Shown here piece after piece: positions 5,132 through 49,176 of a stretch of 64,000 nt of DNA. Position 1 is the stretch's first letter. The number at the start of each line of letters is the position of its first letter. Under the pieces are notes generated by a model. The model was not told the origin of the DNA. It did not search any database and saw only the letters and a program-made list of their open reading frames with translations. The position numbers and the translations under genes were made by a program. This DNA comes from an uncultured bacterium (GTDB lineage Bacteria > Patescibacteriota > Minisyncoccia > Phycocordibacterales > PALSA-1337): NCBI GenBank assembly GCA_963851055.1, contig CAWKMY010000006.1:14663-78662 (forward strand), written 5' to 3'.

Positions 5132-6605
5132 AGTACTCCTTCAACCTCTCCGGCACTATCGCCTTTAGTCCCAACTCATCATTTATCCTCTGCGCCAAAT
5201 GCATAGATGCGCCAGGCTCGCCCATGACGACGAATACCTGCTTCAAACGTATTTCTTTTGCACTATTATCTGGATCTCCTGCTGTCGCCACAAATTCAAC
5301 TAGGTGATCGCCGTCCTTATGAGCAGAATAGCCGTAGAGCGTCTCAATCTTTGCATTCACCTTTACTTGTTCGCCATGAATCTTGACCTTCTTTGCTCCA
5401 TCGGCCAATTCCCTGCCGAGTGAACCTGCCGCTTGATATCCGACGAGTAATATAGTGCTCTTGGGATCAGGAAGGAAATATGCTTCATGGCTGATGATGC
5501 GTCCGCCGACTGACATTCCTGAGCCTGCCAATATGATCTTGGCGCCTTTGAAATGTTCTATGCTACGCGACTCGCCTTGGCTTTCAACGAATGTGAGATG
5601 CGGAAATGAGAATATATCATCACCTGAAGCTATCTGCTTTTTTGCTTCATCGTTGAAAAGAGCTTCGCTCTGCTTATATATTTCTGTTACTTTCTGTGCC
5701 AATGGTGAATCGAAATATACCGGAACGGACGGTATGCGCTTTTCTTTCACCAGATTGTTGAGCTCATAGAGAAGTACCTGACTCCTATCTACAGAAAAAG
5801 CCGGAATGACGAGAGTGCCACCGCGGGCCAAGGTATCATTGATGACTTTCTCGAATTGAGGCAATCTTGTCTCACGTGGTTCGTGGTTTCGATCGCCATA
5901 GACGCTTTCCATGACTAGATAATCGACATCGCCTACTGGTTCAGTATCCCTTAGAATCGGCGCCGGCGAATTTCCCAAGTCTCCAGTAAAAAGAATTTTT
6001 GGTTATTGAACTTGATCACCGGATTTTTTTACACTCACCTCAATCATGGATGATCCTAAAATATGCCCAGCATCTTTCAAGAAAATTGATACGCAATCAC
6101 TTATCTTGAAATTCTCGTGATATGGAATAGTCTTCCACAATGGAAAAACCCGAGTAACATCATCGGCACTGTAAATAGGTTCACGACCATCTTCTTTTGC
6201 TTCGCTGGCCAAAATGTTGACAGCATCATTCAAGACCAATTCCGCCAATGCGCGCGTCTCTGACGTTGAATAAATAACTCCTTTGAATCCATCTTTGACC
6301 AATTTAGGAATGCGTCCAACGTGATCGAGGTGAGCATGTGTGACGATGAGTGCTGTTATAGAGCCAGTATCATAAGGAAACGCCTCACTATTTTGCTCAT
6401 TTGCCACGCGCTCACCTTGGACCATACCGCAATCTACGAGGATCTTCGTGCCGGTATTATCTTTGGCTCCATTGGAATCGACACTACCCGCCGTTTCCAA
6501 CAGGAAGTTGGCACCAGTGACTGTGCCGACGCCAGTACAGAAAGTCAGTTTGTTTTTTTGAGGCATATTGATGCTCATTATATGTGAGAAAGCGCCAATA
6601 ACCAA
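5124..6605 (-). CDS. MBL-fold beta-CASP ribonuclease (COG1236/RNase J-like), interrupted by a single in-frame TAA
   Basis: The N-terminal part (6605-6006) has the HAHLDHVG motif. The C-terminal part continues in the same frame after the stop at 6003-6005, with KILFTGDLGNSPAPILRDTEP, DYLVMESVYGDRNHEP and GYSAHKDGDHL beta-CASP motifs. ORFs 6003..6605 and 5124..5978 are both in frame 2 mod 3. Confidence 0.6.
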
Positions 6606-10524: not shown

Positions 10525-11467
10525 CGTAATGGTTCAATAGCTTGGAATCACCCCAGGTCGTAGGATGATTCCATATGCCATATACATCAAACAAACACAT
10601 GCCTCGCATCAGGAGAGATGCTGCAGAGCTTGTCAGAAGAGGATGGTCAACAAGAAAGGTTGCTCGTCACTTTGGATTCAGTCAAAGCGTCATTGTTAAG
10701 TGGTCGAAGAAAGCGGTGACGTATGGAATCCACCCCATACCAACTCTCTCATCAAGACCAAAGCATCACCCCAGACAATTAAATGATGATTTGATCTGGA
10801 AGATCTTCCACAAGAGACTGCTCATCAGACGAAGTGCTGAAGTGGTTCGTCAAGAGCTCAAGAATGAAGGGACCGGAGTATCTCTTGCTTCAGTAAAGCG
10901 TACGCTTGATCGCATGGGACTCCTGAAGAAGCGCAGTCCGTACAAACGATTCCATCCTCACCAGGATCGTCCAATACCCCTTAAACCAGGCGATTTGGTG
11001 CAGATCGACACCATACACCTCATGGTTGATGGCAAGAGAAGAATATACATATACGTTCTCATCGATGTGTATTCGAGATGGGTGTATGCAAAAGCATATG
11101 AAAAAATCGGAGGTAGGAATAGTTTGAAGTTTGTGAGAGAGGCACAGATACACGCATCATTCCAGTTTCAAATGTTGCAATCAGATCATGGACCAGAATT
11201 CGGTGATTGGTTTGTTGAACAAGTCAAAAAGAATCATCGATATACCCGCATCGGTAAACCAAATGACAATGCGCATATCGAACGATTCAATCGCACAGTG
11301 CAGGAGGAATGTGTGGACAAAGTAGAGAAGACTGTCTATGCACTCAACAAAGCGTTAAAAGTATACATTCCGTATTACAACGAAAAACGCCTTCACTTCG
11401 GCTTAAATTTGAAAACGCCAAGTCAATTTATTGACAAAGTGATTCCAAGCTATTGATTAGAATACGG
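10525..11467 (+). mobile_element. Compact IS element (IS481/IS3-superfamily-like, rve DDE transposase) with 18-bp perfect terminal inverted repeats
   Basis: IRL tcaatagcttggaatcac at 10534-10551. IRR gtgattccaagctattga at 11439-11456, overlapping the transposase stop. Single transposase ORF between them. Confidence 0.7.
10575..11456 (+). CDS. DDE transposase (integrase core domain, IS481-family-like), N-terminal HTH
   Basis: QSDHGPEFGDWF ... GKPNDNAHIERFNRTVQEE integrase-core signature; N-terminal HTH RRGWSTRKVARHFGFSQSVIVKW. Confidence 0.8.
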   Translation: MPYTSNKHMPRIRRDAAELVRRGWSTRKVARHFGFSQSVIVKWSKKAVTYGIHPIPTLSSRPKHHPRQLNDDLIWKIFHKRLLIRRSAEVVRQELKNEGTGVSLASVKRTLDRMGLLKKRSPYKRFHPHQDRPIPLKPGDLVQIDTIHLMVDGKRRIYIYVLIDVYSRWVYAKAYEKIGGRNSLKFVREAQIHASFQFQMLQSDHGPEFGDWFVEQVKKNHRYTRIGKPNDNAHIERFNRTVQEECVDKVEKTVYALNKALKVYIPYYNEKRLHFGLNLKTPSQFIDKVIPSY

Positions 11468-14429: not shown

Positions 14430-14738
14430 ATGAACCTTATTATTAACACCGTTATTAGTGTCAGTGATTTCATCTTTGGTATCCTCATCCTCATTGGAGC
14501 CATTTTGTTCATCATGTTCGTCTGCGAAGTTATCGGCGCTCTAATGGCTGGCAAATGCCCTAAATGTGGGAGCCGACGCACTGGCGTGGAACGTAGCAGT
14601 TCTCATGATAACCATCGTCTTGGTGGTGCCTACGAAACAACGCATTGTAGGTGCCGTAAATGTCGTCACACATGGAATGCTGGCGAAACCAAATTCGTTA
14701 GCGATGATGACCAGAAGATTCGTGATGTATTTCACTGA
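14430..14738 (+). CDS. Hypothetical membrane-anchored zinc-ribbon protein (CPKCG...CRCRKC)
   Basis: N-terminal TM helix then CxxC...CxxC; inserted antisense between secY and rplO. Confidence 0.4.
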   Translation: MNLIINTVISVSDFIFGILILIGAILFIMFVCEVIGALMAGKCPKCGSRRTGVERSSSHDNHRLGGAYETTHCRCRKCRHTWNAGETKFVSDDDQKIRDVFH

Positions 14739-14844
14739 TCAATCGGGTTATGGGTGACACCTTAAAACATAACAAGTCACTCAAGATTTCCCCGGCGACC
14801 GACTTAACTGTTGGCCGCCGGTATTCTTTTACCTAATCTAGCTT

Positions 14845-14906
14845 CTTAGGCGTTTCTTTATCAGTTCTTAGGCGTTTTTTGATTTCTTTTTGAGCGTTTC
14901 TTTATC
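14845..14906 (+). repeat. 62-bp modular interspersed repeat, copy 1 (variant), directly upstream of ORF 14928
   Basis: cttaggcgtttctttatcagttcttaggcgttttttgatttctttttgagcgtttctttatc; shares ttaggcg, tttgagcg and tttctttatc modules with copies at 18572, 47861 (rc) and 50555 (rc). Confidence 0.75.
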
Positions 14907-14927
14907 TCGGTCTGATACAGTTTCTTA

Positions 14928-15296
14928 ATGGACAAAATCCATTATGAAAAACTACTTGAAAAGAGACGTCAATGGTACAAAACCGTAAAGAAAGTCTACT
15001 GTCCTTGTTTAGGAGTGGATGTATTTTTTAATTCTAAAGGCTTCAGACACATCTTATATGACGGCGAGGGTAAATTGCGTTCCTTGCAAGATCGCATCCG
15101 TAGATTGAACTTATTGCCTCTGGCCATTTCGATGATCGGAAACTCGACGAAAATCCATGAACATAGAACTCAATGGAATATGAACTCCGTTTCTTTCAGA
15201 AAATATCATTCGAATAGAGGAACTTGGATAACGGTCGTCATCAAGATAAATCCTTTGGGTAAAATGAATTTTGTGAGCGTCATCGACCGCAAATAG
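14928..15296 (+). CDS. Hypothetical protein
   Basis: 122 aa ORF starting 22 nt after repeat copy 1; weak terminator-like hairpin with T-run at 15303-15328. Confidence 0.4.
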   Translation: MDKIHYEKLLEKRRQWYKTVKKVYCPCLGVDVFFNSKGFRHILYDGEGKLRSLQDRIRRLNLLPLAISMIGNSTKIHEHRTQWNMNSVSFRKYHSNRGTWITVVIKINPLGKMNFVSVIDRK

Positions 15297-17854: not shown

Positions 17855-18241
17855 TTACCAGATTTTAAATAAAATTTCGCCGCCCAACTTGTGCTTCTTG
17901 GCTTCCATATCAGTCATGATGCCCTTGGAAGTAGAAAGAATGAGGTTTCCGAAGCCGCTACGGAATGAACGTATGTCGCTGGCCTTCTGATAAAGACGGC
18001 GTGAAGGCTTGGACAGGCGCTCAACACCATGGATGCGGGGCTCACCATCGAAATAGACTAGGCCGAGCTCTATCTCTCTTTTGGTCTTTGACTTCTCAAC
18101 AGTAGAGAGATAACCAGCCTTCTTCAGAGAATGAGCTACATTCTCAGCAAATTTGGATCCGAGGACAACGACTGAAGCCTTCTTGGCGTCTGAGCCATTC
18201 TTGATGCGGATTATGAGGTCTGATATTGGGTCGGTTACCAT
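17855..18241 (-). CDS. rpsH: 30S ribosomal protein S8
   Basis: S8 begins at MVTDPISDLIIRIKNG; upstream part of ORF is a read-through extension overlapping rpsN. Confidence 0.85.
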   Translation of the reverse strand: MVTDPISDLIIRIKNGSDAKKASVVVLGSKFAENVAHSLKKAGYLSTVEKSKTKREIELGLVYFDGEPRIHGVERLSKPSRRLYQKASDIRSFRSGFGNLILSTSKGIMTDMEAKKHKLGGEILFKIW

Positions 18242-18420
18242 GATGATTTCTTTATACCTGGAATAGCTCCTTCGTTGGCGAATTCGCGGAAACAGATACG
18301 GCACATGTCGAAGTCGCGCATATAGCCGTGCTTACGACCACAGCGGAAACAGCGTCGAACAACCCTAGACTTGAACTTGGGCTTCTTTTTCGAGCGGGCT
18401 ATGACTGCTTTTGTGGCCAT
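18235..18420 (-). CDS. rpsN: 30S ribosomal protein S14 type Z (zinc-binding, 61 aa)
   Basis: CFRCGRKHGYMRDFDMCRIC four-Cys motif, 61 aa. Confidence 0.85.
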   Translation of the reverse strand: MATKAVIARSKKKPKFKSRVVRRCFRCGRKHGYMRDFDMCRICFREFANEGAIPGIKKSSW

Positions 18421-18571
18421 GGTTATTTTTGCAAAACAAATGGGATTGGTCAGCTGTTCGGCGCTTTTAAGAGCGGACCCGATGTGCTTCCAATCATTTC
18501 CTCATAAAACTCTTGTTTTCTAAGGTAAGGATGATACTAGCAGATGAAGACTAGAGAGTCAATAACAAAAT

Positions 18572-18633
18572 CTTAGGCGAATTTTGAGCGAAAATTATGC
18601 GTTTTTTGATTTCTTTTTGAGCGTTTCTTTATC
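18572..18633 (+). repeat. 62-bp modular interspersed repeat, copy 2, 11 nt upstream of mazF-like start
   Basis: cttaggcgaattttgagcgaaaattatgcgttttttgatttctttttgagcgtttctttatc. Confidence 0.8.
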
Positions 18634-18644
18634 ACCTCTATGAT

Positions 18645-19085
18645 ATGTTGCTGTGTATGGACGAAATATACATCAAAGACTTCGATAAATGGAATGAATG
18701 CCAAAAGGCTCTTGATAAACAAGAATTCGAGGGATTTTGTCGTGAACGAGAAGTTTGGTGGTGCGCCTTGGGAGTGAATATTGGCTCGGAACAAGACGGT
18801 AAGAATGATTTATTTGAACGACCAGTACTCATTATCAAGAAGATCCGAAAAGATCTATTACGCATCATTCCACTTACAAGTAAAATAGAAAACCACGATG
18901 ACCGTATAACTGCGATCATTGCTGGAGAAAAATCCCAAATACTTCTCTCACAAGCTAAAACTATCAGCAGTAAGAGGTTATTAAGAAAAATAGGTTATGT
19001 ACGAATCCCATTATTCCAAGAGGTAATCATCCGTCTAGTCAAATCCATACTTGATATCCCTTACGAAAGCGAAACCCCGCTATAA
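18645..19085 (+). CDS. MazF/PemK/EndoA-family endoribonuclease toxin homologue (no obvious cognate antitoxin ORF)
   Basis: REVWWCALGVNIGSEQDGKNDLFERPVLIIK and SQILLSQAKTISSKRL closely parallel B. subtilis EndoA/MazF ([41 protein letters not shown]). Confidence 0.7.
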   Translation: MLLCMDEIYIKDFDKWNECQKALDKQEFEGFCREREVWWCALGVNIGSEQDGKNDLFERPVLIIKKIRKDLLRIIPLTSKIENHDDRITAIIAGEKSQILLSQAKTISSKRLLRKIGYVRIPLFQEVIIRLVKSILDIPYESETPL

Positions 19086-19577
19086 AAGCGGGGAATCTCG
19101 GAGCCCGAAGGCCAAGGTGATACAAGTATATAGGATATAATTTCTGTGTCAAGAAAGATGCTTAGGTGGCATTCACAGCAAAAATAATAACCTTCATTTC
19201 TTGAGTGTAATGAATGAAAGACAACACAAGAGGCCTCTATTAAAGGCCTCTTGAAGAATCTCCGCGTTTTTCGCAAAGCAAGACTGTTCCGGAGGGACCC
19301 CTATTTTTCTCCCTCAACGCCTTTTCATGCCGTATATAAATCAAGGCCGTAGACCTGGGGGATTTACTACATCAAAACTAGTCTTATGACTACATTTTAA
19401 CAAAAATAAAGGCGTTGTCAAACAAAAAAAATATTCATAAATATGCAGAAAACCCGTGCGATTCCATCGTACGGGTTTTGAATGTCAGCGGCTCATTCCG
19501 TGCCGGGTGGTTAGACCACCAAATTTTTAGGACAAAGGTCAAAGTGACAAAAGTCATCAGTGACTAAGTCCAGAGTG

Positions 19578-20387
19578 CTAACTTGCGGACACCGCGGCCG
19601 GGCTGCGGCCATTGAAGTCAACGTCGAGCCAGCGGTAGACCCAGACCCACCCATCGCCGCGCCAGTAGAGGAAACGGACACAGAGGCGGCCACCGGCGTC
19701 GCGGTATATGGTGCCCCAGAAGAAGACGGCTTTGCCTTTCCATTCCTCCGGAATCAGATGGAGATTCGCCATATAGAAGTCCCCCAATTGGGCACCATAG
19801 ACCGGAACTTTCTCCAGCTTCTGGCGAAGTTTGTTCCCCTGGATCCATTTGCCGTCCTTCTGTCCGTCGTCCAGATGAAGCGCAACTTTCTTGGAGTCGA
19901 ACTTCATGGTGCCACGCACCCGATTGGGAAGCTGTTTGGCATCCGGCAGGATCGTCCAACCTTTCGGCACAGACGGAGCCTTGTCGAAGTCAATCAGGTG
20001 TTCAATGGGTTTGATTTCGGAGCAGCCGCGGATATACGAGAGGATTCGGCCGAGCTTGTCGGTATCCCCCGCGATCGAAGCAAAGTCTGCCTCGCGGAAC
20101 CCCACCTTCTTGGCGTAATCCTCGATGGCCAACAAGGACATGAGGAACGGCTGGCCTTGAATGACTTCCGCCGTGATGGCCTGTTTCCACGGTAGGGCCT
20201 TACGGAGCGCCTCGAGATGTTCGGATTCGACTCCGAACGAGGCGAGCAACTCCAAGGTTGCGGTGATTTCAGAATACGGTGTTTTGACAAGATTCCCTTT
20301 CATAAAGGTCATCCTTTCTTTGTTTGGCTCCCTCTCGCATAGCGAAAGGTCGCTGGTTTTTGTTTGCTGGACTCTTCGCCACAGCAT
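19578..20387 (-). CDS. Hypothetical protein in a conspicuously GC-rich segment
   Basis: 269 aa ORF with protein-like composition; overlapping plus-strand ORF 19560..20195 judged antisense artefact of GC-rich DNA. Confidence 0.45.
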   Translation of the reverse strand: MLWRRVQQTKTSDLSLCEREPNKERMTFMKGNLVKTPYSEITATLELLASFGVESEHLEALRKALPWKQAITAEVIQGQPFLMSLLAIEDYAKKVGFREADFASIAGDTDKLGRILSYIRGCSEIKPIEHLIDFDKAPSVPKGWTILPDAKQLPNRVRGTMKFDSKKVALHLDDGQKDGKWIQGNKLRQKLEKVPVYGAQLGDFYMANLHLIPEEWKGKAVFFWGTIYRDAGGRLCVRFLYWRGDGWVWVYRWLDVDFNGRSPAAVSAS

Positions 20388-20448
20388 TCAAAGGCCTAAG
20401 ATTCAAGCCGCTAAATTAAGGGCTTTTTTTCTGCAATCTTCTAACTCC

Positions 20449-21012
20449 TTACTTCTTACTTCCTGCTTCTTCTCTTTTGAGTGGCAATCCCAGATATTCG
20501 AGGAAAGTGAGAGTGGTCTTCTTGTCGTTGGAAGTAGTAACGAGAGTGATACCCATACCGAAGACGTCTTTGAGGTCCTCATCCGAGGTCTCGGCGAAAA
20601 TACTGTGCTCTTTGATACCGATAGTGTAATTGCCCATGGCGTCGACGGCTGTGCGAGAAAGTCCGCGGAAGTCCTTGGTGCGAGGCAAAGCGATATTGAT
20701 GAGACGATCCATAAACTCTGTCATTCGAGGGCCGCGAAGAGTGACCTGGTAAGCGAGTGGGTCACCAAGGCGAGTCTTGAATGTGGCGATGGCTTTCTTG
20801 GCAACACGAAGAGCAGGCTTCTGACCGGTAATGCGGGCCATACGGTCAGCGATGAGCTCGATCTTCTTCTTGTCTTTGACCGAGCCAAAACCGGTTCCGA
20901 TAACAACTTTGGAGAGCTTCGGAGCTTGCATAGGATTCTTTAGATGGAGCTTTTCCTTAAGAGCGCTGAATGATTCCTTATTTAGCTGTTGAGTTGTCTT
21001 TACGTGTGTCAT
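20449..21012 (-). CDS. rplE: 50S ribosomal protein L5
   Basis: 187 aa, L5 signature. Confidence 0.9.
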   Translation of the reverse strand: MTHVKTTQQLNKESFSALKEKLHLKNPMQAPKLSKVVIGTGFGSVKDKKKIELIADRMARITGQKPALRVAKKAIATFKTRLGDPLAYQVTLRGPRMTEFMDRLINIALPRTKDFRGLSRTAVDAMGNYTIGIKEHSIFAETSDEDLKDVFGMGITLVTTSNDKKTTLTFLEYLGLPLKREEAGSKK

Positions 21013-22207: not shown

Positions 22208-22400
22208 GGGGGACTGAATATAAAAAGCTCCACAGAGCCGTGGGAATAGACTACCAAAGCCGCTTGACAAAGTCAATGAAACGGCTATGATTGATTCCAA
22301 CGAGCAGGCAGGGACAAATTCCTGTAGGAAAAGCCATAAAAAGCTACTTGCCGAGCTGGCCTCCCCCGAAAGGGGGCGGTTTCGTCTCAACCTATGTTAG

Positions 22401-22430: not shown

Positions 22431-22943
22431 ATGTTAAATATGCTTAAAACAAGGTCACAACAACTGAACGAGCGTTTATACGAGAATGCAATCTTGTATT
22501 TTATCAAGTATTGCAACAATCAATACCTCGGCAAGACTAAGCTGAATAAGCTTTTGTACTACTTGGATTTCATCTCTTTCAGGGATACGACGAAGACCGT
22601 GAGCGGTGATTCGTATGTACATCAGGAATATGGTCCAGTACCCACTCACATGGATCAAGTATTAACCGAACTCAAAACAAAAGGAATTATTGAAACCGAG
22701 GCTATGCCATACAAAGACGGAGAAATGATCCGTTTTCAGATAAAGAAGACTGACTCCTTGAACGAGAATCTCTTCTCTAAGGATCAAAAAATCCTTTTGA
22801 AAGAAATCTGCGATGAATTCGGTAGTTGGTCAACTGACAAGATCGTGACGCAAACACACCTTGAAGCTCCATGGTTCTTCTCCAAGCCATTTGAAATAGT
22901 CGACTACAAATACGCTGAGGATATAGACTTTTTCCGAAAGTAA
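22431..22943 (+). CDS. Panacea-domain (DUF4065, SocA-like) putative antitoxin
   Basis: KLNKLLYYLDFISFRDTTKTVSGDSYVHQEYGPVP matches the DUF4065/Panacea core (KLxKLLYY...GxPxx...EYGPV). Confidence 0.55.
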   Translation: MLNMLKTRSQQLNERLYENAILYFIKYCNNQYLGKTKLNKLLYYLDFISFRDTTKTVSGDSYVHQEYGPVPTHMDQVLTELKTKGIIETEAMPYKDGEMIRFQIKKTDSLNENLFSKDQKILLKEICDEFGSWSTDKIVTQTHLEAPWFFSKPFEIVDYKYAEDIDFFRK

Positions 22944-22957
22944 TCTCTACTAACGCG

Positions 22958-23347
22958 ATGATCTGGATATATGTCGAACGCGAACAGTATGTCCGGATGT
23001 GCGAGAGGCTAAGGATTTCCACTGAATTGCGTGGAGCAATCAAAAGTTGGGCGCAGACGGTATCGAATAAAAGTGAAGCCCCTCGTTTGAAGCTAGTGTA
23101 TCGCTCACCGAATAATCGCTATGAAGCATGGAATGCTGGAATACCTAACCCAGAGAGCAATCGCGGCAAAAGAGGCGGATATCGCATTGTCTATTTCCTT
23201 GATCTTTTCGAAGGATCAATAAACTTGGATTTCATCGAGGAACGGAAGAACCTCGGATTTGGCAATGAACACCCCAGAGATAAAGAGAGATACAATGATT
23301 ATGTACGCGTGCTGAAAGGATATATCTTGAGATTATGCGCGGAGTAG
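22958..23347 (+). CDS. RelE/HigB/Gp49-like putative toxin
   Basis: NRGKRGGYRIVYFLD resembles the G(K/R)xGGYR(V/I)(I/V)Y signature of RelE/ParE-superfamily Gp49/HigB toxins. The gene starts 15 nt downstream of the Panacea gene. Confidence 0.45.
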   Translation: MIWIYVEREQYVRMCERLRISTELRGAIKSWAQTVSNKSEAPRLKLVYRSPNNRYEAWNAGIPNPESNRGKRGGYRIVYFLDLFEGSINLDFIEERKNLGFGNEHPRDKERYNDYVRVLKGYILRLCAE

Positions 23348-23371
23348 GGAAAAAGCTGTTATACTTCCGAT

Positions 23372-24139
23372 ATGAAAGAGTTTGAGCAAATAATAAAAGA
23401 GGCAGAAAAGCAAGAAGAAATCGTAGGCTTGATCTTGCTCGGTTCACGTGGCAAAGGATTTGAGAATGAATACTCCGATTATGATGCAGTGATGATCGTG
23501 AAGGATGAGTTTGCTGGTGCTTTTAGAGAAAGATATGGAAAACGAGATTTTAACAATGTTGAACTCGTGATAATGTCCATTTCTGACTTCAAGAAATATG
23601 CAGAATGGGGCAGTCCCGAATCGTGGGACAAATACGATTATGCCCATACAAAAATACTTGTAGACAAGACTAACGATTTACCTGCTCTTGTCAAAGAAAA
23701 AGGATTTGTGCCAGCAGAAAAATTGGAAGAGTTTATTGGTGGCTGTATAGATGGATATGTGAATGGGGCATATCGTTCGATAAAATGTATCCGTAATAAC
23801 AATCTATTCGGTGCACGCTTGGAAGCGTCTAACTCGATGCTTGACTTACTAACCTGTGTTTTCGCCTTCAATGGCAGATGCAGGCCTTTTCTTGGGTATG
23901 TCGAGAAGGAACTCGAGAAGTATCCGCTGGAATATCTCCCGTGGCATTCCATCGAACTTCTGGCAAAAATAGAAAAAGTGCTGGCAACTGCAGACCTTAA
24001 AACTCAACAGGAACTACTTATGGGAATTGAAAAGATGAGCCGTGAGACTGGGCATGGCAAAGTGTTCGATGGCTGGAAGGGCAAGGATAAGTGGGCGATG
24101 GAATATAAGCCCGCAGTAAAATCAAAAACCAAGCAGTAA
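23372..24139 (+). CDS. ANT(6)/AadK-family nucleotidyltransferase (streptomycin adenylyltransferase-like)
   Basis: EIVGLILLGSRGKGFENEYSDYDAVMIVKDEF matches the ANT(6) N-terminal GSR...SDYD(I/V)...V.D nucleotidyltransferase motif; about 255 aa as in AadE/AadK. Confidence 0.6.
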   Translation: MKEFEQIIKEAEKQEEIVGLILLGSRGKGFENEYSDYDAVMIVKDEFAGAFRERYGKRDFNNVELVIMSISDFKKYAEWGSPESWDKYDYAHTKILVDKTNDLPALVKEKGFVPAEKLEEFIGGCIDGYVNGAYRSIKCIRNNNLFGARLEASNSMLDLLTCVFAFNGRCRPFLGYVEKELEKYPLEYLPWHSIELLAKIEKVLATADLKTQQELLMGIEKMSRETGHGKVFDGWKGKDKWAMEYKPAVKSKTKQ

Positions 24140-26063: not shown

Positions 26064-26411
26064 CTATTTTGTGTATTTTATAGGCGCTTCCTGAACAGAT
26101 AATACTAGAGTATCTTCAGCCACCTCGTAACCATGTGGAACACCTTTAGGAAGATCAATGACCTGCCCTGATTTATAATCAATATTTTTGTCTCCGAGAA
26201 TAGCTATGCCTTTACCTTTTAGTATATACAACTTAGAAGAGGCCTCATTGTGTGAATGAACCGGGTCTATAACGCCTTTGGCGAGAAAGGCAAATACAAT
26301 TTGCTGACCATCTTCAAATACAGGAAAGATAAAAACATCTCGTTCCTCCTTACCTTTCCCAAGGTGTTTATGAGTGAGTAGATTCTTTAATATAATAAAT
26401 AAATTATCCAT
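26064..26411 (-). CDS. Cupin-domain protein
   Basis: 115 aa, two-His cupin motifs (HSHNEASSKLYILKG ... GVPHGYEV). Confidence 0.5.
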   Translation of the reverse strand: MDNLFIILKNLLTHKHLGKGKEERDVFIFPVFEDGQQIVFAFLAKGVIDPVHSHNEASSKLYILKGKGIAILGDKNIDYKSGQVIDLPKGVPHGYEVAEDTLVLSVQEAPIKYTK

Positions 26412-26418
26412 ATTAATA

Positions 26419-27093
26419 TTATTTTCTACCCCAAACTAATACGCGTTTTCTGATTCCATAACCTGGACGGAAATACCTTAAGTACTTAGAACCAACTGAT
26501 TTATAACCAGATCTTTTAAGAGAATCTCTAAGATATTTTGCAGAGAACCAATATATATTTTTAAAACCATCGTGTATCTGTACTGGCACTTTCTTTGTCG
26601 GTGAATCATTTGCAATAAATAATACCCCGTCTTCCTTTAAAGCCTTTTTTGCCTCTGCCAGAAATTTTCCCACAGATGCATTTTTATCTGCTAAATGACC
26701 AATCACCCCATCGCTTAAGATCAGATCAAAATGATTATTGAGGTCGAATTTTCCTGTTGCATCTAAATACTTAACCTTGAGTCCTTTGGCCATAGCAAAC
26801 TTCAAAGCTTGTATCGACACATCGGTCGCCAACACATTGCAACCACTATCGGCTAGTCTCTTCTCTATAAAAGCATTGCCGCAACCAATACTTAATATAT
26901 TTGGCTTTTTTACCCTCTTTAGAAGAGATAGTATATCTGAGCAAATTGCTTCTAGATAATCTTTGTCAAAAGTTGATGGAGTAATCGAGCTCCCAACATT
27001 TTTTCCCTTTTCCCAAAGCTCAAATCTAGACCGACCATCTTGTACTGGTTCTTCATACATCCTCACTGTTTCTTTTATCTCCGACAATCTCAT
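26419..27093 (-). CDS. Class I SAM-dependent methyltransferase
   Basis: Motif I ILSIGCGNAFIEKRLADSGCNVLATDVS and downstream acidic motif LILSDGV. Confidence 0.6.
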   Translation of the reverse strand: MRLSEIKETVRMYEEPVQDGRSRFELWEKGKNVGSSITPSTFDKDYLEAICSDILSLLKRVKKPNILSIGCGNAFIEKRLADSGCNVLATDVSIQALKFAMAKGLKVKYLDATGKFDLNNHFDLILSDGVIGHLADKNASVGKFLAEAKKALKEDGVLFIANDSPTKKVPVQIHDGFKNIYWFSAKYLRDSLKRSGYKSVGSKYLRYFRPGYGIRKRVLVWGRK

Positions 27094-27169
27094 CGCAAAA
27101 ATATATCATAATCGTAGGCAAAAAACCCGTAGCGCAATGCCACGGGCTGACTACTTTATGAAAAACAGG

Positions 27170-28090
27170 CTAATTGTGAACCGCCTTCGAAGAGCTGGCG
27201 CACAAGTCGTGAGCAAACTTCTCGACTGGCGTAAGGTCATATGCGGCAACGAGCCACAATAAACCGTGCGCCACACCAATAACAAGCGGATCTTGGCGCG
27301 GAATCTCCTTGACCTTCCAAGACTCATCCGGTGCTTCGGCGACGATAAACATGTCATCGAAGCGAGGACAACCTGGTTTTGGATCAAGCCAACCACGGAC
27401 TTGTTCACGAACATCTGACGGCATCACACCGCCATACTTGGCCGTAAGCTCAATCCGCTCAAGGTTTTTGGAGTCACACCAAGCGCCGAGGCTTTGGCGA
27501 AGATTCGCGTCCAAATAATGCGTGGCCATAATTTCCGGAATTTTTGGAGAAATACTGAATCCGGAAGTCGTGGTCCGTGCTAGGCCTCGCCTCTCGATCA
27601 ACTCGACAAGGGGAATGGCCGCTTGTCTTTCTTGAAAGAGATCATTCATCCAAGATGAACGGCCATCGTGAGTGAAGACCACCGTCATCGTATCACTGTC
27701 TAGACGGAAGATTGAAAAGGCGGGAAAGCCCTCTTGGGTCTTCCAAGACAGGAATGAAGGATCAATCGTCGGTAATTCGAACTCCGGAGTATGTTCAAAC
27801 CTGGCAATTTCCCGACCAACCACACCTAGCCGAAAATCAAGGGTGGTCTTCAGTTCAGTCTCGAGAAGCAAAGCGCGGTGCAAAGTATTTTGCATCAGGC
27901 GCCTGGAACTGTAGAGCCTTTCGAGCTTGACTGGGTCCTCCAATTCTTGGAGTGAGAGATGCCGAGCCGTCAATGCGGCGACTGGCACAAATTCACCGAT
28001 TTTTAGGAGCCGATTTCCTATTCTGGCTCCCATGAGCGGGGGTTGGGTAACATTAGTTTTCATAGGACTATGTGGTTGTTTGTTTTGCAT
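27170..28090 (-). CDS. Hypothetical protein (GC-richer than flanks)
   Basis: 306 aa ORF; no recognisable family. Confidence 0.4.
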   Translation of the reverse strand: MQNKQPHSPMKTNVTQPPLMGARIGNRLLKIGEFVPVAALTARHLSLQELEDPVKLERLYSSRRLMQNTLHRALLLETELKTTLDFRLGVVGREIARFEHTPEFELPTIDPSFLSWKTQEGFPAFSIFRLDSDTMTVVFTHDGRSSWMNDLFQERQAAIPLVELIERRGLARTTTSGFSISPKIPEIMATHYLDANLRQSLGAWCDSKNLERIELTAKYGGVMPSDVREQVRGWLDPKPGCPRFDDMFIVAEAPDESWKVKEIPRQDPLVIGVAHGLLWLVAAYDLTPVEKFAHDLCASSSKAVHN

Positions 28091-28263
28091 GGCTATCCTG
28101 TCGTCACTTTCAGACAGGACTCATGTATTTCCTCTATAAGTATAGCTCCGTATAAGATTGCAACAACGTAAAAGTTGATAAAAGGTGCATAACTTTTAGG
28201 CAAAAACGGGCTTACGATCAGGCCTTGTATACCATGCTATAATTCCCCCACAACTCCTCTTCC

Positions 28264-29082
28264 ATGGCATCCTCATATATCCCCGACACCATAGACTTCC
28301 TTGGGCAAAACCCGGTCTGGCTACTCGCCCTAGCGACGGCCATCATCCTGACTATCACCCTCATCAATCACATCCTTTGGCGCAAACTGAAGGAAGGTGA
28401 GAAATTGAAATATGAATTCATCACCATCATGGCCCACAAGTTCCGCACGCCACTCACCCATATCAAGTGGATATCGGACGAGTTGGTAGGAACGGTTCAA
28501 GACCAGCGGATAAAAGAGGGCCTGGAGCAGATACGGCGAGCCGGTACAAATCTAGTGGGACTGACCACCACTCTACTAGAACTGACCGATTCGAGAAAAG
28601 AAAAGACCTTATACGCTTTCGAACGGACAAACTTGTGCGACTTTGTCCGTACCATAGGCGAAGCAGCCAGAAGGACATTTCAAGAGAAGAACATTTCCTT
28701 CTCCGTAGTCTGTGACGATGGACCCGTTTTCGCCAAAATAGATAAGCCGCGCATGGAATTTGCCGTGCAAGTGCTCATGGATAACGCCTTTGCTTACACT
28801 CCCACCGGCAAAGTTGTGGCGATAACGGTCTCGAGGTCCGGACGCAAAGCGAACATATCCGTCAAAGATAACGGTATAGGTATCAGGCCGGAGGATATGA
28901 AGAAGATTTTCGGCAAATTCTTCCGGGCAGGCAATGCCCAGGCTATGGACACGGAAGGGTTCGGCGTCGGTTTATATCTAGCCAGATCAGTGGTAGAAAG
29001 GCACCATGGAAAGTTGGAAGCCTTCTCGGATGGAGAGGGCTTCGGCTCTACGTTCAAGATAGTTTTGAGAGCGATCAAATAG
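28264..29082 (+). CDS. Orphan sensor histidine kinase (1 TM, HisKA + HATPase_c)
   Basis: H-box MAHKFRTPLTHIKWISDEL; N, G1 (DNGIGI) and G2 (GFGVGL) boxes; no response regulator adjacent. Confidence 0.7.
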   Translation: MASSYIPDTIDFLGQNPVWLLALATAIILTITLINHILWRKLKEGEKLKYEFITIMAHKFRTPLTHIKWISDELVGTVQDQRIKEGLEQIRRAGTNLVGLTTTLLELTDSRKEKTLYAFERTNLCDFVRTIGEAARRTFQEKNISFSVVCDDGPVFAKIDKPRMEFAVQVLMDNAFAYTPTGKVVAITVSRSGRKANISVKDNGIGIRPEDMKKIFGKFFRAGNAQAMDTEGFGVGLYLARSVVERHHGKLEAFSDGEGFGSTFKIVLRAIK

Positions 29083-33804: not shown

Positions 33805-35325
33805 CTAGTGAGAATTTAGGTACTGCTGTACTGCGTTCCAGACGGAAGCCGAGAGCGAAGTCTGAAAGTTATACGAGGTCGTCCCTACGCATGCCGAACC
33901 ATTCCATGTCTGACCGGCTACAGGACAAGTGTACTGAGCAGAGTTGAACAGAGACGAATCCCATATCCAGTTGGCTCCGGAAATGCGAGCCCAGCTTCTA
34001 TAGAGGTTATTTGACGGTATAACTAAGGTGGATCCTCCGGATGATTGTTCCGTACCATCGCTCGAGGCTATGATGCTCCCTCCCGAAGATATGGTGTAAT
34101 CAACTCCGGCTGGATTTCCCCACCATCCCCATTCTATGGACGGATTCGGAATGTTTGTAACCGTTATAGCTATAGTATTGCTACCTTGATTGACGGCAGA
34201 AGTGATGTCGTAAGTCTTAGGTGATGTGAAGTTAGTCGCATTCACATCTCCTGAAGCAACAGGGATACCATTCACAGACACGGAATATCCGTTATCAGCC
34301 GCTATAGACAGAGACACTGGGCTGGTTGTCGAAGTCAAATTGAATGTCTTGGTGAAGGTTATGACTTGCGGAGGAACGTTGGCGTAAGAGACTGGAGCCG
34401 ATGGAGGAGTCTGCGTCTGCGTTGAGCACGTGTAGCTAGGCGGACAATTCGAGGTGACACCGGTGCAAGTGTATCCTGAAGGACAAGTGGTCGTCTGACC
34501 AGGAGGAGTACAGACATAACCTGCAGGACAAGCAACAGGGGTAGCAGTCACATTCACCGTCGTTGTCGTCTGTGCGGACAAGCCTGCGCTGTCGGTCACC
34601 GAGAATGTAATCGTGTAATTCCCCGCTGAAGCGTATGAATGGGTGAACGTAGAATTCTGTACAACAAGGCTAGCGCTGTTCGCACATACATAACCGACAG
34701 GGCAGGCTGAACCATTATCTCCCCAATTGACCGAGTAACTCAACGAACCATTCTGCGGATCACTTGCATTGACCGCCCAAGTACCTGTCTGACCGACCGT
34801 GAGTGTCGTCGGGAACGTCCCGCCGGAGATGACCGGGGGTTGGGAAGTCGGCTGCTGTGTCGTGGTACAAACGTAACCATTGCAAGACGCCTGTGAGATA
34901 GAACTATTGTATAGAGCGGAATCCCATATCCAGCTAGCGCCAGGAATAGAAGTCCATGAATAGAGAATCTTGCTTTGCGGAATAACTATAGTCGATCCGC
35001 CGGAAGATTGTTCTGTGCCATCGCTCGAGGCCAGAGTCGCCCAGTTCTGAGTTACCTTGTAGTCCAGTCCGGCCGGATTGCTGGCCCAGATAGTGCCGGT
35101 AGTCGCTGGATTGACGATATTGTCCACCGTTATAGCCAAAGTGTTGCTTCCCTGATGGATAGCCGAAGTTATATCCACATTCTGCGGTGAATAGAAGTTC
35201 GTCTCTGAATTGTTCGTCGAGACATTCGTGCCATTCACGGAAACGGAGAATCTGTTATCAGCCGCGATGGCGAGAGTCACCGGACTGCCGGTCTGGTTCA
35301 CATTGAAGGTCTTGGTGAAGGTCAC
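33805..35325 (-). CDS. Extracellular Cys-rich repeat protein (PKD-like domain, two about 170-aa internal repeats); probably the C-terminal part of one giant gene with 35333..37678
   Basis: CP(A/V/S)GY(V/T)CT repeats; PKD-like WGDNGS...AGNYTITFSVTDSAG; duplicated ITFTKTFN...SSDGTEQSSGGST...WIWDS modules. GTG start with no signal peptide. The frame stays open upstream (…NDQVVTFTKTFN), matching the internal repeat. Confidence 0.55.
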   Translation of the reverse strand: MTFTKTFNVNQTGSPVTLAIAADNRFSVSVNGTNVSTNNSETNFYSPQNVDITSAIHQGSNTLAITVDNIVNPATTGTIWASNPAGLDYKVTQNWATLASSDGTEQSSGGSTIVIPQSKILYSWTSIPGASWIWDSALYNSSISQASCNGYVCTTTQQPTSQPPVISGGTFPTTLTVGQTGTWAVNASDPQNGSLSYSVNWGDNGSACPVGYVCANSASLVVQNSTFTHSYASAGNYTITFSVTDSAGLSAQTTTTVNVTATPVACPAGYVCTPPGQTTTCPSGYTCTGVTSNCPPSYTCSTQTQTPPSAPVSYANVPPQVITFTKTFNLTSTTSPVSLSIAADNGYSVSVNGIPVASGDVNATNFTSPKTYDITSAVNQGSNTIAITVTNIPNPSIEWGWWGNPAGVDYTISSGGSIIASSDGTEQSSGGSTLVIPSNNLYRSWARISGANWIWDSSLFNSAQYTCPVAGQTWNGSACVGTTSYNFQTSLSASVWNAVQQYLNSH

Positions 35326-46466: not shown

Positions 46467-46934
46467 TTATGGTGCCGTCCCTCCAGAGATATCATACATT
46501 TTCTCATAGGTTCTCGGATCTATGATAAATGCGGAAACGACCTGATTCTCTGAACCAGGCGTTTTTGTTATCTCAAGAACTACTCCATAATTTCTACTAA
46601 TTTTCCGTGTTAGGATAAAACTATTATCTCGTTTTAGAAAATTGTTGACTATCTTTTCGGGCATATTTAGAACCACTGGAATTATACTTATAACTTCATC
46701 GGCCTTATTTCCTCTACTGTCGATGATATGCTTGAGAGCTCTTCTGGAAATATATACCCCACGGGATTTAGACCCGATAACTTGTGCCGTGCAGTATGAG
46801 ATGAATGCCACACTAAATATTCGGAGTGGATCGGGAATGGCCTCACCAACACTGATGTTCTTAAGCTCCTCAATTATTTCATCCGGTATACTCATGTATT
46901 TATGTTCATTGAGAAATACCGATGTCAATTCCAT
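46467..46934 (-). CDS. Hypothetical protein, paralogue A of a two-member family with RR(A/T)LKH motif
   Basis: Aligns with ORF 48733..49176: YISRRALKHIIDSRG...IIPVVLNMPEKIV...VVLEI vs FFTRRTLKHLAEKG...IIPNILEYPDVIF...IIVIEF. Confidence 0.4.
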   Translation of the reverse strand: MELTSVFLNEHKYMSIPDEIIEELKNISVGEAIPDPLRIFSVAFISYCTAQVIGSKSRGVYISRRALKHIIDSRGNKADEVISIIPVVLNMPEKIVNNFLKRDNSFILTRKISRNYGVVLEITKTPGSENQVVSAFIIDPRTYEKMYDISGGTAP

Positions 46935-47860: not shown

Positions 47861-47922
47861 GATAAAGAAACGCTCAAAAAGAAATCAAAAAACGCCTAAT
47901 TTTCGCTCAAAATTCGCCTAAG
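47861..47922 (-). repeat. 62-bp modular interspersed repeat, copy 3, 22 nt upstream of the MBL gene start
   Basis: rc reads cttaggcgaattttgagcgaaaattaggcgttttttgatttctttttgagcgtttctttatc; shares the extra tcgg(g)tctg tail with copy 1. Confidence 0.8.
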
Positions 47923-47997
47923 AAAGGCCAAAAATGTTAAAATTACTTGGTAAAATCTAAATACTGACACATTAATACCAATAACGAGAATTATTTT

Positions 47998-48732: not shown

Positions 48733-49176
48733 TCACGAAAGTGAGCCGCCCGTCCTCCAGAGAATCTCAAAGTTCTTGAGGTATTTTTCGTCCGTGACAA
48801 AAGATGTGACCAGAATCACGCCTCTCTCAAGAAATTCAATTACGATTATATGCGGCTCTCTTTTCTTGCCCTGATTGAAAAATTTTGCAGAAAGTAACCG
48901 AGTCTTCTTTCCCCGGAAAATAACATCTGGATATTCGAGGATATTTGGAATAATTCCGAGCAATCTTTTACCCTCTACTCCCTTTTCGGCAAGATGTTTT
49001 AGTGTACGTCGAGTAAAAAATGCCTGTAACTTTCCTCTAGAAAAAATCTGCATAATTACAGGGTGTACAGAAAAACCAGTCTGGATTAATTCATCAGGCC
49101 TATCAATCAAAATCCCTTTCGGAATTTTTTGGAATTCGTAAAAAATTGACCGTAAAGGTGTGGTGTGCTTATTCAT
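48733..49176 (-). CDS. Hypothetical protein, paralogue B (RRTLKH motif)
   Basis: See paralogue A; overlaps stop of comEC N-terminal gene by 4 nt. Confidence 0.4.
   Translation of the reverse strand: MNKHTTPLRSIFYEFQKIPKGILIDRPDELIQTGFSVHPVIMQIFSRGKLQAFFTRRTLKHLAEKGVEGKRLLGIIPNILEYPDVIFRGKKTRLLSAKFFNQGKKREPHIIVIEFLERGVILVTSFVTDEKYLKNFEILWRTGGSLS

Follow-up and report, generated by a model that had tools for sequence, protein, structure and literature searches.

An accessory island between rplE and rpsN

In the window (the whole 64-kb stretch of DNA analysed here, part of a 214-kb contig) the ribosomal protein genes rplE and rpsN, both identified with Pfam and both on the minus strand, are 2028 nt apart. 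An earlier reading of the DNA, made from the sequence only, had described a 2-kb insert in the spc operon at this point, and this is borne out. The borders and the main contents of the insert are as follows:

18235-18420, minus strand: rpsN, encoding a zinc-type S14 protein of 61 aa (PF00253, E 7e-22); left border of the island
18421-18562, minus strand: rpsN promoter and 5' leader of about 115 nt, kept in relatives; border of the variable island
18562-18557 and 18539-18534, minus strand: -35 (TTGACT) and -10 (TAGTAT) of the conserved rpsN promoter, 17-nt spacer (promoter scan)
18571-18633, plus strand: dispersed repeat of 63 nt, with five units of 11 nt each (TTrrGCGnnnn); occurs four times in the window
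18657-19085, plus strand: MazF/PemK-family endoribonuclease-like ORF, 142 aa (Pfam, PHROG and PDB profile matches)
19065-19118, minus strand: predicted sRNA of about 54 nt, convergent with the MazF-like gene (covariance model, covariation, MFE fold)
19153-19440, no strand assigned: unexplained spacer with no homologue in any locus fetched (BLAST) and no Rfam match
19227-19253, no strand assigned: perfect 12-bp hairpin within this spacer
19421-19394, minus strand: promoter-like site (11/12, promoter scan) within this spacer
19452-19476, no strand assigned: hairpin of 11-14 bp with A/T-run flanks, resembling a bidirectional terminator, downstream of the DGR-target gene
19578-20312, minus strand: gene of a DGR variable-protein family, 244 aa (419 homologues; product identical to P0121)
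20449-21012, minus strand: rplE (PF00281 and PF00673); right border of the island

Similarity to relatives restarts exactly at the rpsN promoter (with its -35 at 18562-18557) and at 20445-20466. These points delimit a variable island of about 1.9 kb (approximately 18566-20448). The gene rpsN has its own conserved promoter and leader: in five relatives with differing upstream cargo, the -35 and -10 elements are invariant and the leader is conserved.

Because the cargo at the rplE/rpsN junction differs among relatives, the junction is, judging from these comparisons, an insertion hotspot. An orphan MazF inside a ribosomal operon had been considered odd. Its position within the ribosomal cluster is accounted for by the hotspot, together with the promoter and leader that rpsN carries. 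The junction would provide a natural landing pad for accessory genes in reduced genomes.

The explanation we favour, with moderate confidence as a whole, is that the island represents two unrelated accessory units that share this hotspot. The first (approximately 18600-19156) would be a two-gene module composed of a MazF-fold RNase and a convergent sRNA. The second (approximately 19441-20403) would be a DGR variable-protein gene that has kept its variable-region scaffold and IMH-like end.

The 63-nt repeat had been noted in front of the MazF-like gene as a 62-bp repeat, and it is indeed present there, but with a length of 63 nt and without being specific to this gene, since further copies (at 14844, 47861 and 50555) precede unrelated genes. 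Each copy lies about 20 nt upstream of an ATG, and the other genes concerned are an LPD3-like ORF and two ORFs of the ComEC region. The repeat supplies the -35 (TTGAGC, 18617-18622) of a promoter-like site whose -10 is TATGAT (18639-18644; promoter scan). It is a genome-wide promoter-associated repeat and not part of the toxin module. We also considered it as a type-III-like antitoxin array; this was discarded since the same repeat occurs upstream of unrelated genes.

The GC-rich gene and its DGR-linked relatives

The minus-strand ORF on the rplE side had been read as a 269-aa protein of obscure nature whose GC content sets it apart from its surroundings. The ORF is real but was over-extended (the called product has 244 aa), and an alternative start (ATG 20303) shows better Shine-Dalgarno spacing. 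Its GC content is indeed high (56.5%, with a GC3 of 71%, against 47.1% for the window). This is a property of the whole family, in which GC exceeds that of the flanks at 41 of 42 loci, and is therefore no proof of recent foreign origin. The gene belongs, by homology, to a family of variable proteins of diversity-generating retroelements (DGRs), a family for which Pfam has no model. The elements associated with it are:

19524-19577, minus strand: segment of about 50 nt past the stop codon, a candidate target-recognition region (BLAST, alignment)
19581-19707, minus strand: variable-region (VR) scaffold with a GC-rich IMH-like end, GCCGCGGTGTCCGCAAG; aligns to the template repeat (TR) of locus L012
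20357-20403, minus strand: element ahead of the gene that is conserved in relatives, its promoter or 5' UTR (sequence identity)

Homologues of the protein have hypervariable columns at the C-terminus, in a VR of about 125 nt. For example, at L012 the VR departs from the TR at 23 positions, every one of them (23/23) an adenine in the TR, and Avd and the reverse transcriptase (RT) then follow. Among 57 homologous loci, 27 have a TR (310-400 nt downstream) and 24 an RT or Avd, while TR adenines account for 523 of the 622 VR/TR mismatches. These counts include the long-form relatives (L105, L107, L113, L116 and L150). The order in the DGR-linked homologues is VR, TR, Avd on the opposite strand, and RT.

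The window gene shares its IMH-like GCCGCGGTGTCCGCAAGTTAG and about 50 nt past its stop with the DGR-linked loci, the BLAST similarity of many of which reaches 19524-19566. The segment at 19524-19577 contains a hairpin (z -3.2), and no consensus structure was predicted for the post-VR segment by RNAalifold on a MAFFT alignment. The upstream element is 85% identical to positions 4900-4946 of L012 and to L109, and L103 is 88.7% identical to the window over 20369-19998. Further downstream, the hairpin at 19452-19476 (fold z -3.5 on the plus strand and -2.4 on the minus strand) lies within a stretch, 19441-19656, that is 79% identical to L186.

Known DGR variable proteins such as Bordetella phage Mtd, Treponema TvpA and the targets of DGR clade 2 provide the closest comparison. 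Like them, the family has a C-terminal VR, a TR with adenine-specific mismatches, Avd and RT, and the window gene retains the VR scaffold and the GC-rich IMH-like end; unlike them, the window gene is not accompanied by TR, Avd or RT in the 64 kb analysed. Sensitive blastn detected no TR-like repeat in the window and sensitive tblastn no similarity to RT or Avd. One Avd-like tblastn match (19255-19338, E 6) was dismissed as noise. Structural comparison of the protein, using a confident AF2 model, gave no significant Foldseek match to solved variable proteins of the C-type-lectin fold, the one to be expected for such proteins: the best E was 0.27, and matches to C-type-lectin domains were only weak.

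The second unit would thus be without the TR, Avd and RT that follow about 45% of its homologues. From this absence we infer its present diversification status: the gene would be either the remote target of a DGR at another place in the genome or an orphan whose diversification has ceased. It is quite possible that the gene was acquired horizontally, has an obscure function and is unrelated to DGRs at this locus, as a decayed or domesticated copy that has long been undiversified. The absence of TR, Avd and RT from the 64 kb agrees with this, and among homologues whose flanks are long enough, over half are likewise without them. A distant homologue occupying the same rplE/rpsN site (L186) is likewise without RT. 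Against it, the ORF is intact, the VR scaffold, the IMH-like end and the 50 nt past the stop are conserved with DGR-linked copies, and remote DGR targets are documented (PMC8144416). The same study restricts DGR clade 2 to Patescibacteria (Roux et al. 2021, PMC8144416).

Membership in the family provides a function-level label, 'DGR variable protein', for hundreds of 'hypothetical proteins' of Patescibacteria. Many copies, including that of the window, lie far from any retroelement, which bears on how frequently DGRs act in trans.

A MazF-family gene with a predicted convergent sRNA gene

The ORF at 18657-19085 is, by its profile matches, a gene of the MazF/EndoA family, as had been proposed from its motifs. 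It passes the curated threshold of PF02452 (42.4 bits with a cut-off of 23.1, E 8.8e-11) and is matched by phrog_9567, 'MazF-like growth inhibitor' (E 3e-15). The profile of its family matches B. subtilis EndoA (4mdx, E 1.4e-7). Alignment of the homologues and of the four repeat copies places the start at ATG 18657 and not at 18645. In an alignment of 26 homologues, R55, P56 and T74 are invariant; in EndoA they correspond to positions of the VRP and IT motifs. Arg55 and Thr74 are the counterparts of EndoA R25 and T48, which we take to be the catalytic residues in the B. subtilis MazF structure. The protein would presumably be toxic.

Members of the clade are extended at the N-terminus by about 30 aa (a helix), a feature that classical MazF lacks, and in the window protein a 5-residue insertion precedes the conserved Arg. 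The AF2 model is poor (pLDDT 66). The GC content of the gene is 38.2%. There are 543 homologues at E<=1e-3. GTDB species representatives include 493 relatives, with a top identity of 65%, and 80 of these loci were examined. The module is found in many contexts, for example between the terminase and portal genes of a Campylobacter prophage, and the clade with the sRNA may have a possible relative in such prophages. No PADLOC defence model matches the locus, which is uninformative in either direction.

MazF proteins are the standard example of type II toxins, whose defining feature is an antitoxin that is a protein. No MazE-sized ORF had been seen beside the window gene, and this holds: none of the eight small ORFs that flank it has a Pfam match. 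The survey of the 80 related loci (a greedy ORF survey) found no recurrent small ORF upstream or downstream. An adjacent co-transcribed gene for a protein antitoxin is therefore absent from the window and does not recur across the 80 loci. The missing antitoxin, regarded initially as an oddity of this locus, is, as the comparison indicates, a family-wide trait. A conventional type II system, with an overlooked antitoxin (a tiny or fast-evolving neighbour) or a MazE-like protein supplied in trans, seems quite improbable. Some loci do have sporadic upstream ORFs (one of 82 aa in L003, for instance, and a HicB-like ORF of 112 aa in L065), the visible genome amounts to 64 kb, and a solitary MazF is reported to be under control in trans in Myxococcus (PMC2701414). 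These points have to be set against the lack of any recurring ORF on either side in 80 loci and the small ORFs of the window, which are not conserved and match no family. In addition, the sole conserved element linked to the toxin is non-coding.

This element is the predicted sRNA gene, which together with its promoter spans 19056-19152 and covers roughly the final 21 nt of the MazF ORF. A small gene of this kind, convergent with the 3' end of MazF, is present in every close relative. The parts of the window copy are:

19152-19125, minus strand: sigma-70-type promoter (TTGACA, 16 nt, TATACT; 11/12, promoter scan)
19113-19102, minus strand: hairpin 1, GGCC-UUCG-GGCU
19101-19094, minus strand: invariant linker CCGAGAUU (YCCGAGA)
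19093-19075, minus strand: intrinsic terminator hairpin; the MazF stop codon (19083-19085) falls within the loop
19074-19065, minus strand: U-tract, UUUCGCUUUC

A small-ORF and sRNA prediction downstream of MazF, suggested in the sequence-only reading, gives this gene and no conserved ORF. The stretch of 470 nt that follows MazF had been called non-coding and hairpin-rich. It does have hairpins (19227-19253 and 19452-19476) and no conserved ORF, but it holds a conserved sRNA gene.

The covariance model matches the window at 19056-19121 on the minus strand (69.9 bits, E 6e-26), its sole full-length match in 64 kb. It identifies 61 copies at E<1e-6, every one antisense at a MazF 3' end, and has no true match in 422 kb of DNA from other loci of the candidate phyla radiation (CPR), used as a control. 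With a threshold of E<1e-3 and either of two models (R1 or R2), the sRNA is found at 66 of the 80 MazF loci; approximately 6-14 of the 80 show no match or a weak one. A divergent MazF at the rplE/rpsN site (L188) likewise has the promoter and the two-hairpin layout. The unit is single in the window and occurs as two tandem units in L017, L046 and L068. Rfam gave no match at the gathering score and none that is credible at E<=10 over 18400-20480, and nothing relevant to a 'pemK RNA motif' was found in Rfam or the literature.

A 15-nt core, CGGAGCCCGAAGGCC, does not vary among the first six copies, in which it is situated at or after the MazF stop. Depending on the copy, any of the three frames may run through it, or it is found 13-109 nt beyond the stop; the constraint on it must therefore operate at the nucleotide level. 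Conservation of a C-terminal protein motif ('ETPP') was rejected on the same grounds. The layout hairpin, linker, hairpin, AGTATA, N16, TGTCAA is common to 29 distinct copies. A promoter scoring at least 9/12 is present on the antisense strand at 52 of 61 loci, compared with 4/61 on the sense strand and 9/61 in shuffles, and is situated 11-15 nt from hairpin 1 at 50 of the 61.

In the alignment, 97.4% of the cells at paired positions are paired, a value inflated by fitting of the alignment to the model. In the same model-fitted alignment, double changes number 85, compared with 22 in shuffles. Compensatory changes occur at 9 of the 11 pairs, and the observed values were matched by none of 500 shuffles. 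G-U pairs (16) outnumber A-C pairs (4). Both the U-tract behind the hairpin and the cUUCGg tetraloop exist on the minus strand only. Covariation, G-U bias and promoter all fit a minus-strand RNA. Conservation, covariation, promoter, terminator and the exclusive tie to the MazF clade together define, at the level of sequence, a predicted sRNA gene, which would be transcribed from its own promoter.

Could the element instead be a cis-acting 3' structure of the MazF mRNA (a terminator, a stabiliser or an autoregulatory MazF site), with no separate sRNA and with the toxin controlled by other means? In all copies the hairpin extends across the stop codon, Watson-Crick covariation is strand-neutral, and the invariant plus-strand UCUCGGAG is a possible recognition site for the RNase. 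We nevertheless think this unlikely, given a sigma-70-type promoter at fixed distance on the opposite strand only, the excess of G-U over A-C, the confinement of the tetraloop to the minus strand and the lack of a plus-strand U-tract after the hairpin.

Possible role of the sRNA

The observations are best accommodated by a module in which MazF would be transcribed on the plus strand from the promoter embedded in the 63-nt repeat. The facing sRNA would have its own sigma-70-type promoter and an intrinsic terminator overlapping the last MazF codons, and would restrain the RNase. The sRNA is thus probably an RNA antitoxin or regulator of MazF. Of the three sources of antitoxin envisaged in the sequence-only reading (a very small protein, an RNA encoded downstream of MazF, or supply in trans), the RNA is the one we favour. 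That reading has therefore held for a MazF without MazE partner in an spc insertion and for the RNA option; it has not for the repeat, for foreignness or for the peculiarity of the locus.

Restraint could be exerted in two ways. The sRNA might act as a cis-antisense RNA, pairing with the toxin mRNA at its 3' end and favouring degradation of this mRNA (type-I-like), or it might bind the RNase directly as a pseudo-substrate (type-III-like). The second option is raised because the invariant, single-stranded YCCGAGA linker suggests binding by a protein. A purely cis-antisense role leaves the sequence invariance of the linker and hairpin 1 unexplained. Pairing in trans was considered at two other positions and is unsupported: there is no conserved complementarity of the sRNA to the MazF translation-initiation region (mean z -0.05) nor to the conserved GSE codons (in GSEQDG, the Ser codon is free).

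An invariant linker without a conserved mRNA target would also suit a MazF-like protein that is the dedicated partner of the sRNA (for example, a nuclease that processes RNA, is guided by it or senses it, as part of a defence or mobile cassette) rather than a growth-inhibiting toxin. The RNA would then be a cofactor or substrate and not an antidote. The N-terminal extension and the many contexts of the module, including the Campylobacter prophage with its terminase/portal interval, are compatible with this. However, in its fold family and in the residues at the catalytic positions the protein agrees with mRNA interferases, and no further conserved partner gene was seen at the 80 loci. We consider such a role to have a low probability.

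The favoured module, in which the sRNA restrains the RNase, has something in common with each of three known types of system. Like type II toxins (MazEF, PemIK and EndoA-EndoAI), the window protein falls within PF02452 and has the Arg and Thr aligned with EndoA R25 and T48. Unlike them, it and its 80 relatives have no gene for MazE, PemI or another protein antitoxin, and it carries the N-terminal helix, the 5-residue insertion and a convergent sRNA partner.

Some type I modules have a convergent antisense RNA that overlaps the 3' end of the toxin gene (for example, Fst/RNA II of Enterococcus par, and TxpA/RatA and BsrG/SR4 of B. subtilis). The predicted arrangement is similar in that a small RNA gene with its own promoter faces and overlaps the 3' end of the toxin, and in that a hairpin is common to both genes at the point of convergence. 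It differs in that the toxin is a soluble RNase-fold protein of 142 aa and not a small membrane peptide, and in that the RNA has only about 54 nt, with a non-overlapping part that is invariant in sequence across distant lineages.

In type III systems (ToxIN, CptIN and TenpIN) a structured RNA neutralises an endoribonuclease whose fold is related to that of Kid/MazF. The antitoxin there is an array of tandem repeats that precedes the toxin gene on the same strand, and the toxin processes it. The invariant single-stranded motif of the window sRNA would fit recognition by a protein as in these systems. In contrast, the window sRNA is a single unit located downstream and on the opposite strand, and the family of the toxin is PF02452 and not ToxN/AbiQ.

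Our literature search, which covered MazF of Patescibacteria, MazF described as orphan or solitary, and RNA antitoxins that act on MazF, returned no description of a MazF-sRNA module. We propose, tentatively and at a little under an even chance, that in a large, mostly Patescibacteria clade of PemK/MazF-fold RNases the protein antitoxin has been replaced by a convergent sRNA of about 54 nt, whose YCCGAGA loop acts as a pseudo-substrate or inhibitor. If this is true, the module would represent a hybrid class of toxin-antitoxin (TA) system, in which a type II toxin is combined with the gene layout of type I and with a type-III-like inhibition. It would be a self-contained cassette of 0.55 kb that colonises intergenic hotspots, even in operons for ribosomal proteins and chaperones. 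A widespread MazF clade with an sRNA gene and without a protein partner would make TA types I, II and III harder to keep apart, would add an uncatalogued RNA family and would explain many of the 'orphan MazF' annotations in CPR genomes.

The rplE/rpsN junction

The S10-spc ribosomal-protein cluster of the window lies on the minus strand in the order tuf, rpsJ, rplD, rplW, rplB, rpsS, rplV, rpsC, rplP, rpmC, rpsQ, rplN, rplX, rplE, rpsN, rpsH, rplF, rplR, rpsE, rplO, secY, adk, map. Accessory genes break it at four places:

Between rpsN (18235-18420) and rplE (20449-21012): the interruption studied here
14430-15296, rplO/secY: an LPD3-like 122-aa ORF and a 102-aa ORF
22431-24139, rpmC/rplP: a SocA/Panacea-domain protein, a 129-aa protein of unknown kind and a nucleotidyltransferase
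26064-29082, rplB/rpsS: a histidine kinase, a 306-aa protein of unknown kind, a methyltransferase and a cupin

An Rfam DUF3800-II RNA (RF02961, 53.5 bits; 22297-22361, plus) lies immediately upstream of the SocA/Panacea gene. Two related contigs (L185, L191) carry a DUF3800 protein gene immediately upstream of rpmC, matching the rpmC side of this insert. Other features of the window are:

461-823, minus: tmRNA gene, tag AKTVSPYFTERDFAFALV
10575-11456, plus: IS-type rve integrase, adjoining map
33805-35325, minus: 506-aa ORF with internal direct repeats 963 nt apart

Homologues of the studied genes come nearly all from Patescibacteria (CPR) MAGs (for example, Taylorbacteria, Nomurabacteria, Paceibacteria and Kaiserbacteria). 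Among contigs with an identical S14 protein, the rplE/rpsN cargo varies:

L185 and L190-L192: a 163-aa protein of unknown kind
L186: a distant DGR (diversity-generating retroelement)-target-like gene and DUF2127, its 3' end 79% identical to window 19441-19656
L188: a MazF-like gene
L189: a 165-aa ORF without Pfam match, membrane-protein-like in appearance
L184 and L187: a giant surface protein

The junction thus tolerates insertions and accumulates them. Homology with all these contigs restarts exactly at TTGACT (18562-18557), followed after 17 nt by TAGTAT, and a conserved leader, about 115 nt long, separates this predicted promoter from rpsN. The conservation of both argues that rpsN to rplO form their own transcription unit in this lineage. 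The promoter and leader (18421-18562, minus) are common to relatives whatever the upstream cargo. The leader has apparent covarying stems and the region has no Rfam match; a ribosomal protein may regulate its own synthesis through this leader, which would then divide the spc operon.

The repeat reported ahead of MazF as 62 bp is present as a 63-nt element of five 11-nt units (11 nt being one helical turn), and it also precedes other genes. Its four window copies (14844-14928, 18571-18633, 47861-47925 and 50555-50619) precede the start codons (ATG) of four unrelated genes by about 20 nt each, which rules it out as part of a toxin module. It is, on its distribution, a dispersed promoter-associated repeat: the -35 of a MazF promoter-like site comes from its last unit, and the element resembles a promoter or operator common to several genes. 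Two of the genes preceded by the repeat are ORFs that lie side by side in the ComEC region, and after each comes a paralogous ORF of about 150 aa (46467-46934, 48733-49176). A 29-nt piece of the repeat is also present in L184 and L187.

The GC-rich gene

The minus-strand ORF, first read as 269 aa, is present but encodes 244 aa (19578-20312), with the same sequence as database protein P0121; the longer figure includes an upstream extension. Its GC content (56.5%, GC3 71%) does exceed that of the window (47.1%) and of MazF (38.2%). This is no sign of a recent foreign origin: GC in the family is 55.3%, compared with 42.6% for the flanks, and exceeds that of the flanks in 41 of 42 loci. High GC is a trait of this DGR-target family.

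Homologues of the product number 419, and it contains no Pfam domain. In loci of the homologue P0148 (L011-L014) bAvd and an RVT_1 reverse transcriptase (RT) lie downstream of the gene, and in L012 its last 121 nt (5466-5586) are repeated at 5983-6103, with 23 of 23 differences at adenines of this second copy. Differences confined to adenines are the hallmark of DGR mutagenic homing. Our survey combined 80 metagenomic loci, picked out by means of the family alignment, with loci already collected. Where at least 700 nt were available downstream, a template repeat (TR) lies 310-400 nt after the stop in 27 of 57 loci, and Avd or RT in 24 of 57. Mismatches fall at TR adenines in 523 of 622 cases, the exceptions being paralogue pairs. 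The survey includes long-form relatives with the N-terminal domain of the window protein (L105, L107, L113, L116, L150). The protein alignment has hypervariable columns, as expected, within the fixed scaffold FFWGTIYR..G.L.VR.L.W.G..W.W...WL......PAAV.AS. The window gene retains this variable-region (VR) scaffold, a GC-rich IMH-like end and about 50 conserved nucleotides past the stop, and can be classed by sequence as a DGR variable protein, a further member of a kind already known.

No TR, RT or Avd was found in the 64-kb window, and homology to DGR-linked loci ends near 19524-19530, so this copy is either an orphan or a DGR target at a distance from its retroelement. Both remote targets and a DGR clade confined to Patescibacteria have been described (PMC8144416).

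An AF2 model of the product is confident (pLDDT 92), with a helical N-terminal domain and a beta-rich C-terminal domain bearing the VR. Foldseek with this model gave no significant neighbour, and C-type-lectin-domain matches were weak. DNA identity to the P0122 locus (L099-L103) is 88.7% over window 19998-20369 (5' UTR and N-terminal domain) and about 70% over the C-terminal half, which suggests domain-wise recombination. Each of the four P0122 contigs shown breaks off some 200-300 nt before the gene on its upstream side.

MazF and its neighbours

The sequence-only reading had assigned the plus-strand ORF to MazF/EndoA and seen no MazE-sized ORF beside it. Both observations are confirmed, and the other features it listed are present as well; its interpretation is supported in part. 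The ORF (18657-19085, starting at the ATG at 18657, 142 aa) belongs to the PemK/MazF family (PF02452, 42.4 bits, cut-off 23.1; also phrog_9567), and a profile of 26 homologues matches Bacillus subtilis EndoA (E 1.4e-7). R55, P56 and T74 are invariant across the family and correspond in the alignment to the VRP and IT motifs of EndoA, which hold the catalytic R25 and T48.

Small ORFs on either side of MazF have no family match. GTDB species representatives were scanned, giving 493 MazF relatives, and 80 loci were examined. No small ORF recurs upstream or downstream in these, and the neighbours vary by locus and in any orientation. An overlooked protein antitoxin would be a rival reading; candidates are sporadic, an 82-aa ORF in L003 and a HicB-like ORF in L065. 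With no recurring partner ORF in the 80 loci, the 'orphan' state is the rule for this clade.

Campylobacter phage CJIE4-3 (L183, 1980-2480) carries a lone MazF-like gene, flanked by the genes for the terminase large subunit and the portal, with 38% identity and an N-terminal extension as in the window MazF. A CCCCGC...GCGGGG hairpin spans its stop codon, followed by a second small hairpin; the CPR RNA model described below gives no significant match there.

A predicted RNA gene convergent with MazF

Over 18600-19156 the window is 81% identical to L001 and L002, of unrelated context, which marks the borders of the unit made up of MazF and the RNA gene. Alignment of DNA downstream of six MazF copies in differing contexts (among them ahead of ftsK, in the grpE-dnaK gap and twice within an ABC-transporter operon) revealed an invariant 15-mer, CGGAGCCCGAAGGCC. 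The window has it a single time (19099-19113), and in those loci there is one for each MazF copy. Its position ranges from 85 nt before to 109 nt after the stop codon. Its translations use all three frames (...GNLGARRP, ...RGISEPEG, ...GESRSPKA), which places the constraint at the nucleic-acid level.

Twenty-nine distinct copies share one layout on the strand opposite MazF: TTGACA, 16 nt, TATACT, about 11 nt, GGCC-UUCG-GGCU, CCGAGAUU, a GC-rich hairpin whose sequence varies and UUUCGNUUUU. This reads as a promoter, a short two-hairpin RNA and an intrinsic terminator. The predicted elements in the window, all minus strand, are:

19152-19147: -35
19130-19125: -10
near 19118: start
19113-19102: hairpin 1
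19101-19094: linker
19093-19075: terminator hairpin, its loop containing the MazF stop codon (19083-19085)
19074-19065: U-tract

The conserved element might instead act in cis on the plus strand, a rival on which the strand-specific signals bear. Promoter scores of at least 9/12 occur in 52 of 61 copies on the RNA strand, against 4 on the other strand and 9 in shuffles. The -10 ends 11-15 nt ahead of hairpin 1 in 50 of the 61, and 43 have a 16-nt spacer. The U-tract and cUUCGg tetraloop are on the minus strand only, and G-U pairs outnumber A-C pairs (16 versus 4). RNAalifold gives 11 pairs, with compensatory changes in 9. In the 61-sequence alignment, which was fitted to the model, 97.4% of cells pair. 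Double-change cells number 85, compared with 22 in shuffles, and 0 of 500 shuffles attain the observed figure; the covariation signal is lost when partner columns are slid.

The covariance model R1 has 61 matches at E<1e-6, every one antisense to MazF at its 3' end, with a single full-length match in the window (19056-19121, 69.9 bits). R1 or the broader R2 matches there at E<1e-3 in 66 of the 80 loci, and weakly in 8 more. No true match was found in 422 kb of CPR DNA gathered for another gene. The L188 gene, more distant (36% identity) and at the same junction of a relative, has no model match; by eye, TTGACA, 17 nt and TACAAT precede two hairpins. Comparative support for a minus-strand RNA gene at the MazF 3' end is thus strong.

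Two tandem RNA copies follow a single MazF gene in L017, L046 and L068, and tandem or nearby duplicate modules occur in L053, L083, L094 and L005/L022 (for example, two in one ABC-transporter operon). A strong promoter-like site (19421-19394, minus; 11/12, with TG), together with a perfectly paired 12-bp hairpin (19227-19253, z -4.8), could delimit another small transcript, about 150 nt long; the region 19153-19440 has no homologue in any fetched locus.

Since the RNA is the sole conserved partner of a toxin-family gene, the economical reading, reached by inference, is that it controls the toxin; a rival is that the pair has a non-toxin role. The RNA might act as an antisense RNA against the toxin 3' end, in the type I manner, or be bound by the RNase, in the type III manner. 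As in some type I modules, it converges on and overlaps the toxin 3' end. Unlike in these, the toxin candidate is a 142-aa RNase-fold protein, and outside the ORF the RNA does not vary in sequence, which simple cis-complementarity does not demand. The linker is the most invariant part (TCCGA in 51 of 61 copies), and no conserved complementarity was found to the MazF start region or to its conserved GSE codons. This combination indicates that a conserved protein recognises the RNA, the simplest candidate being the RNase, as in type III systems. Rfam has no family matching the RNA and literature searches found no description of the module. As far as these show, MazF and its RNA would represent an undescribed variant of toxin-antitoxin organisation.
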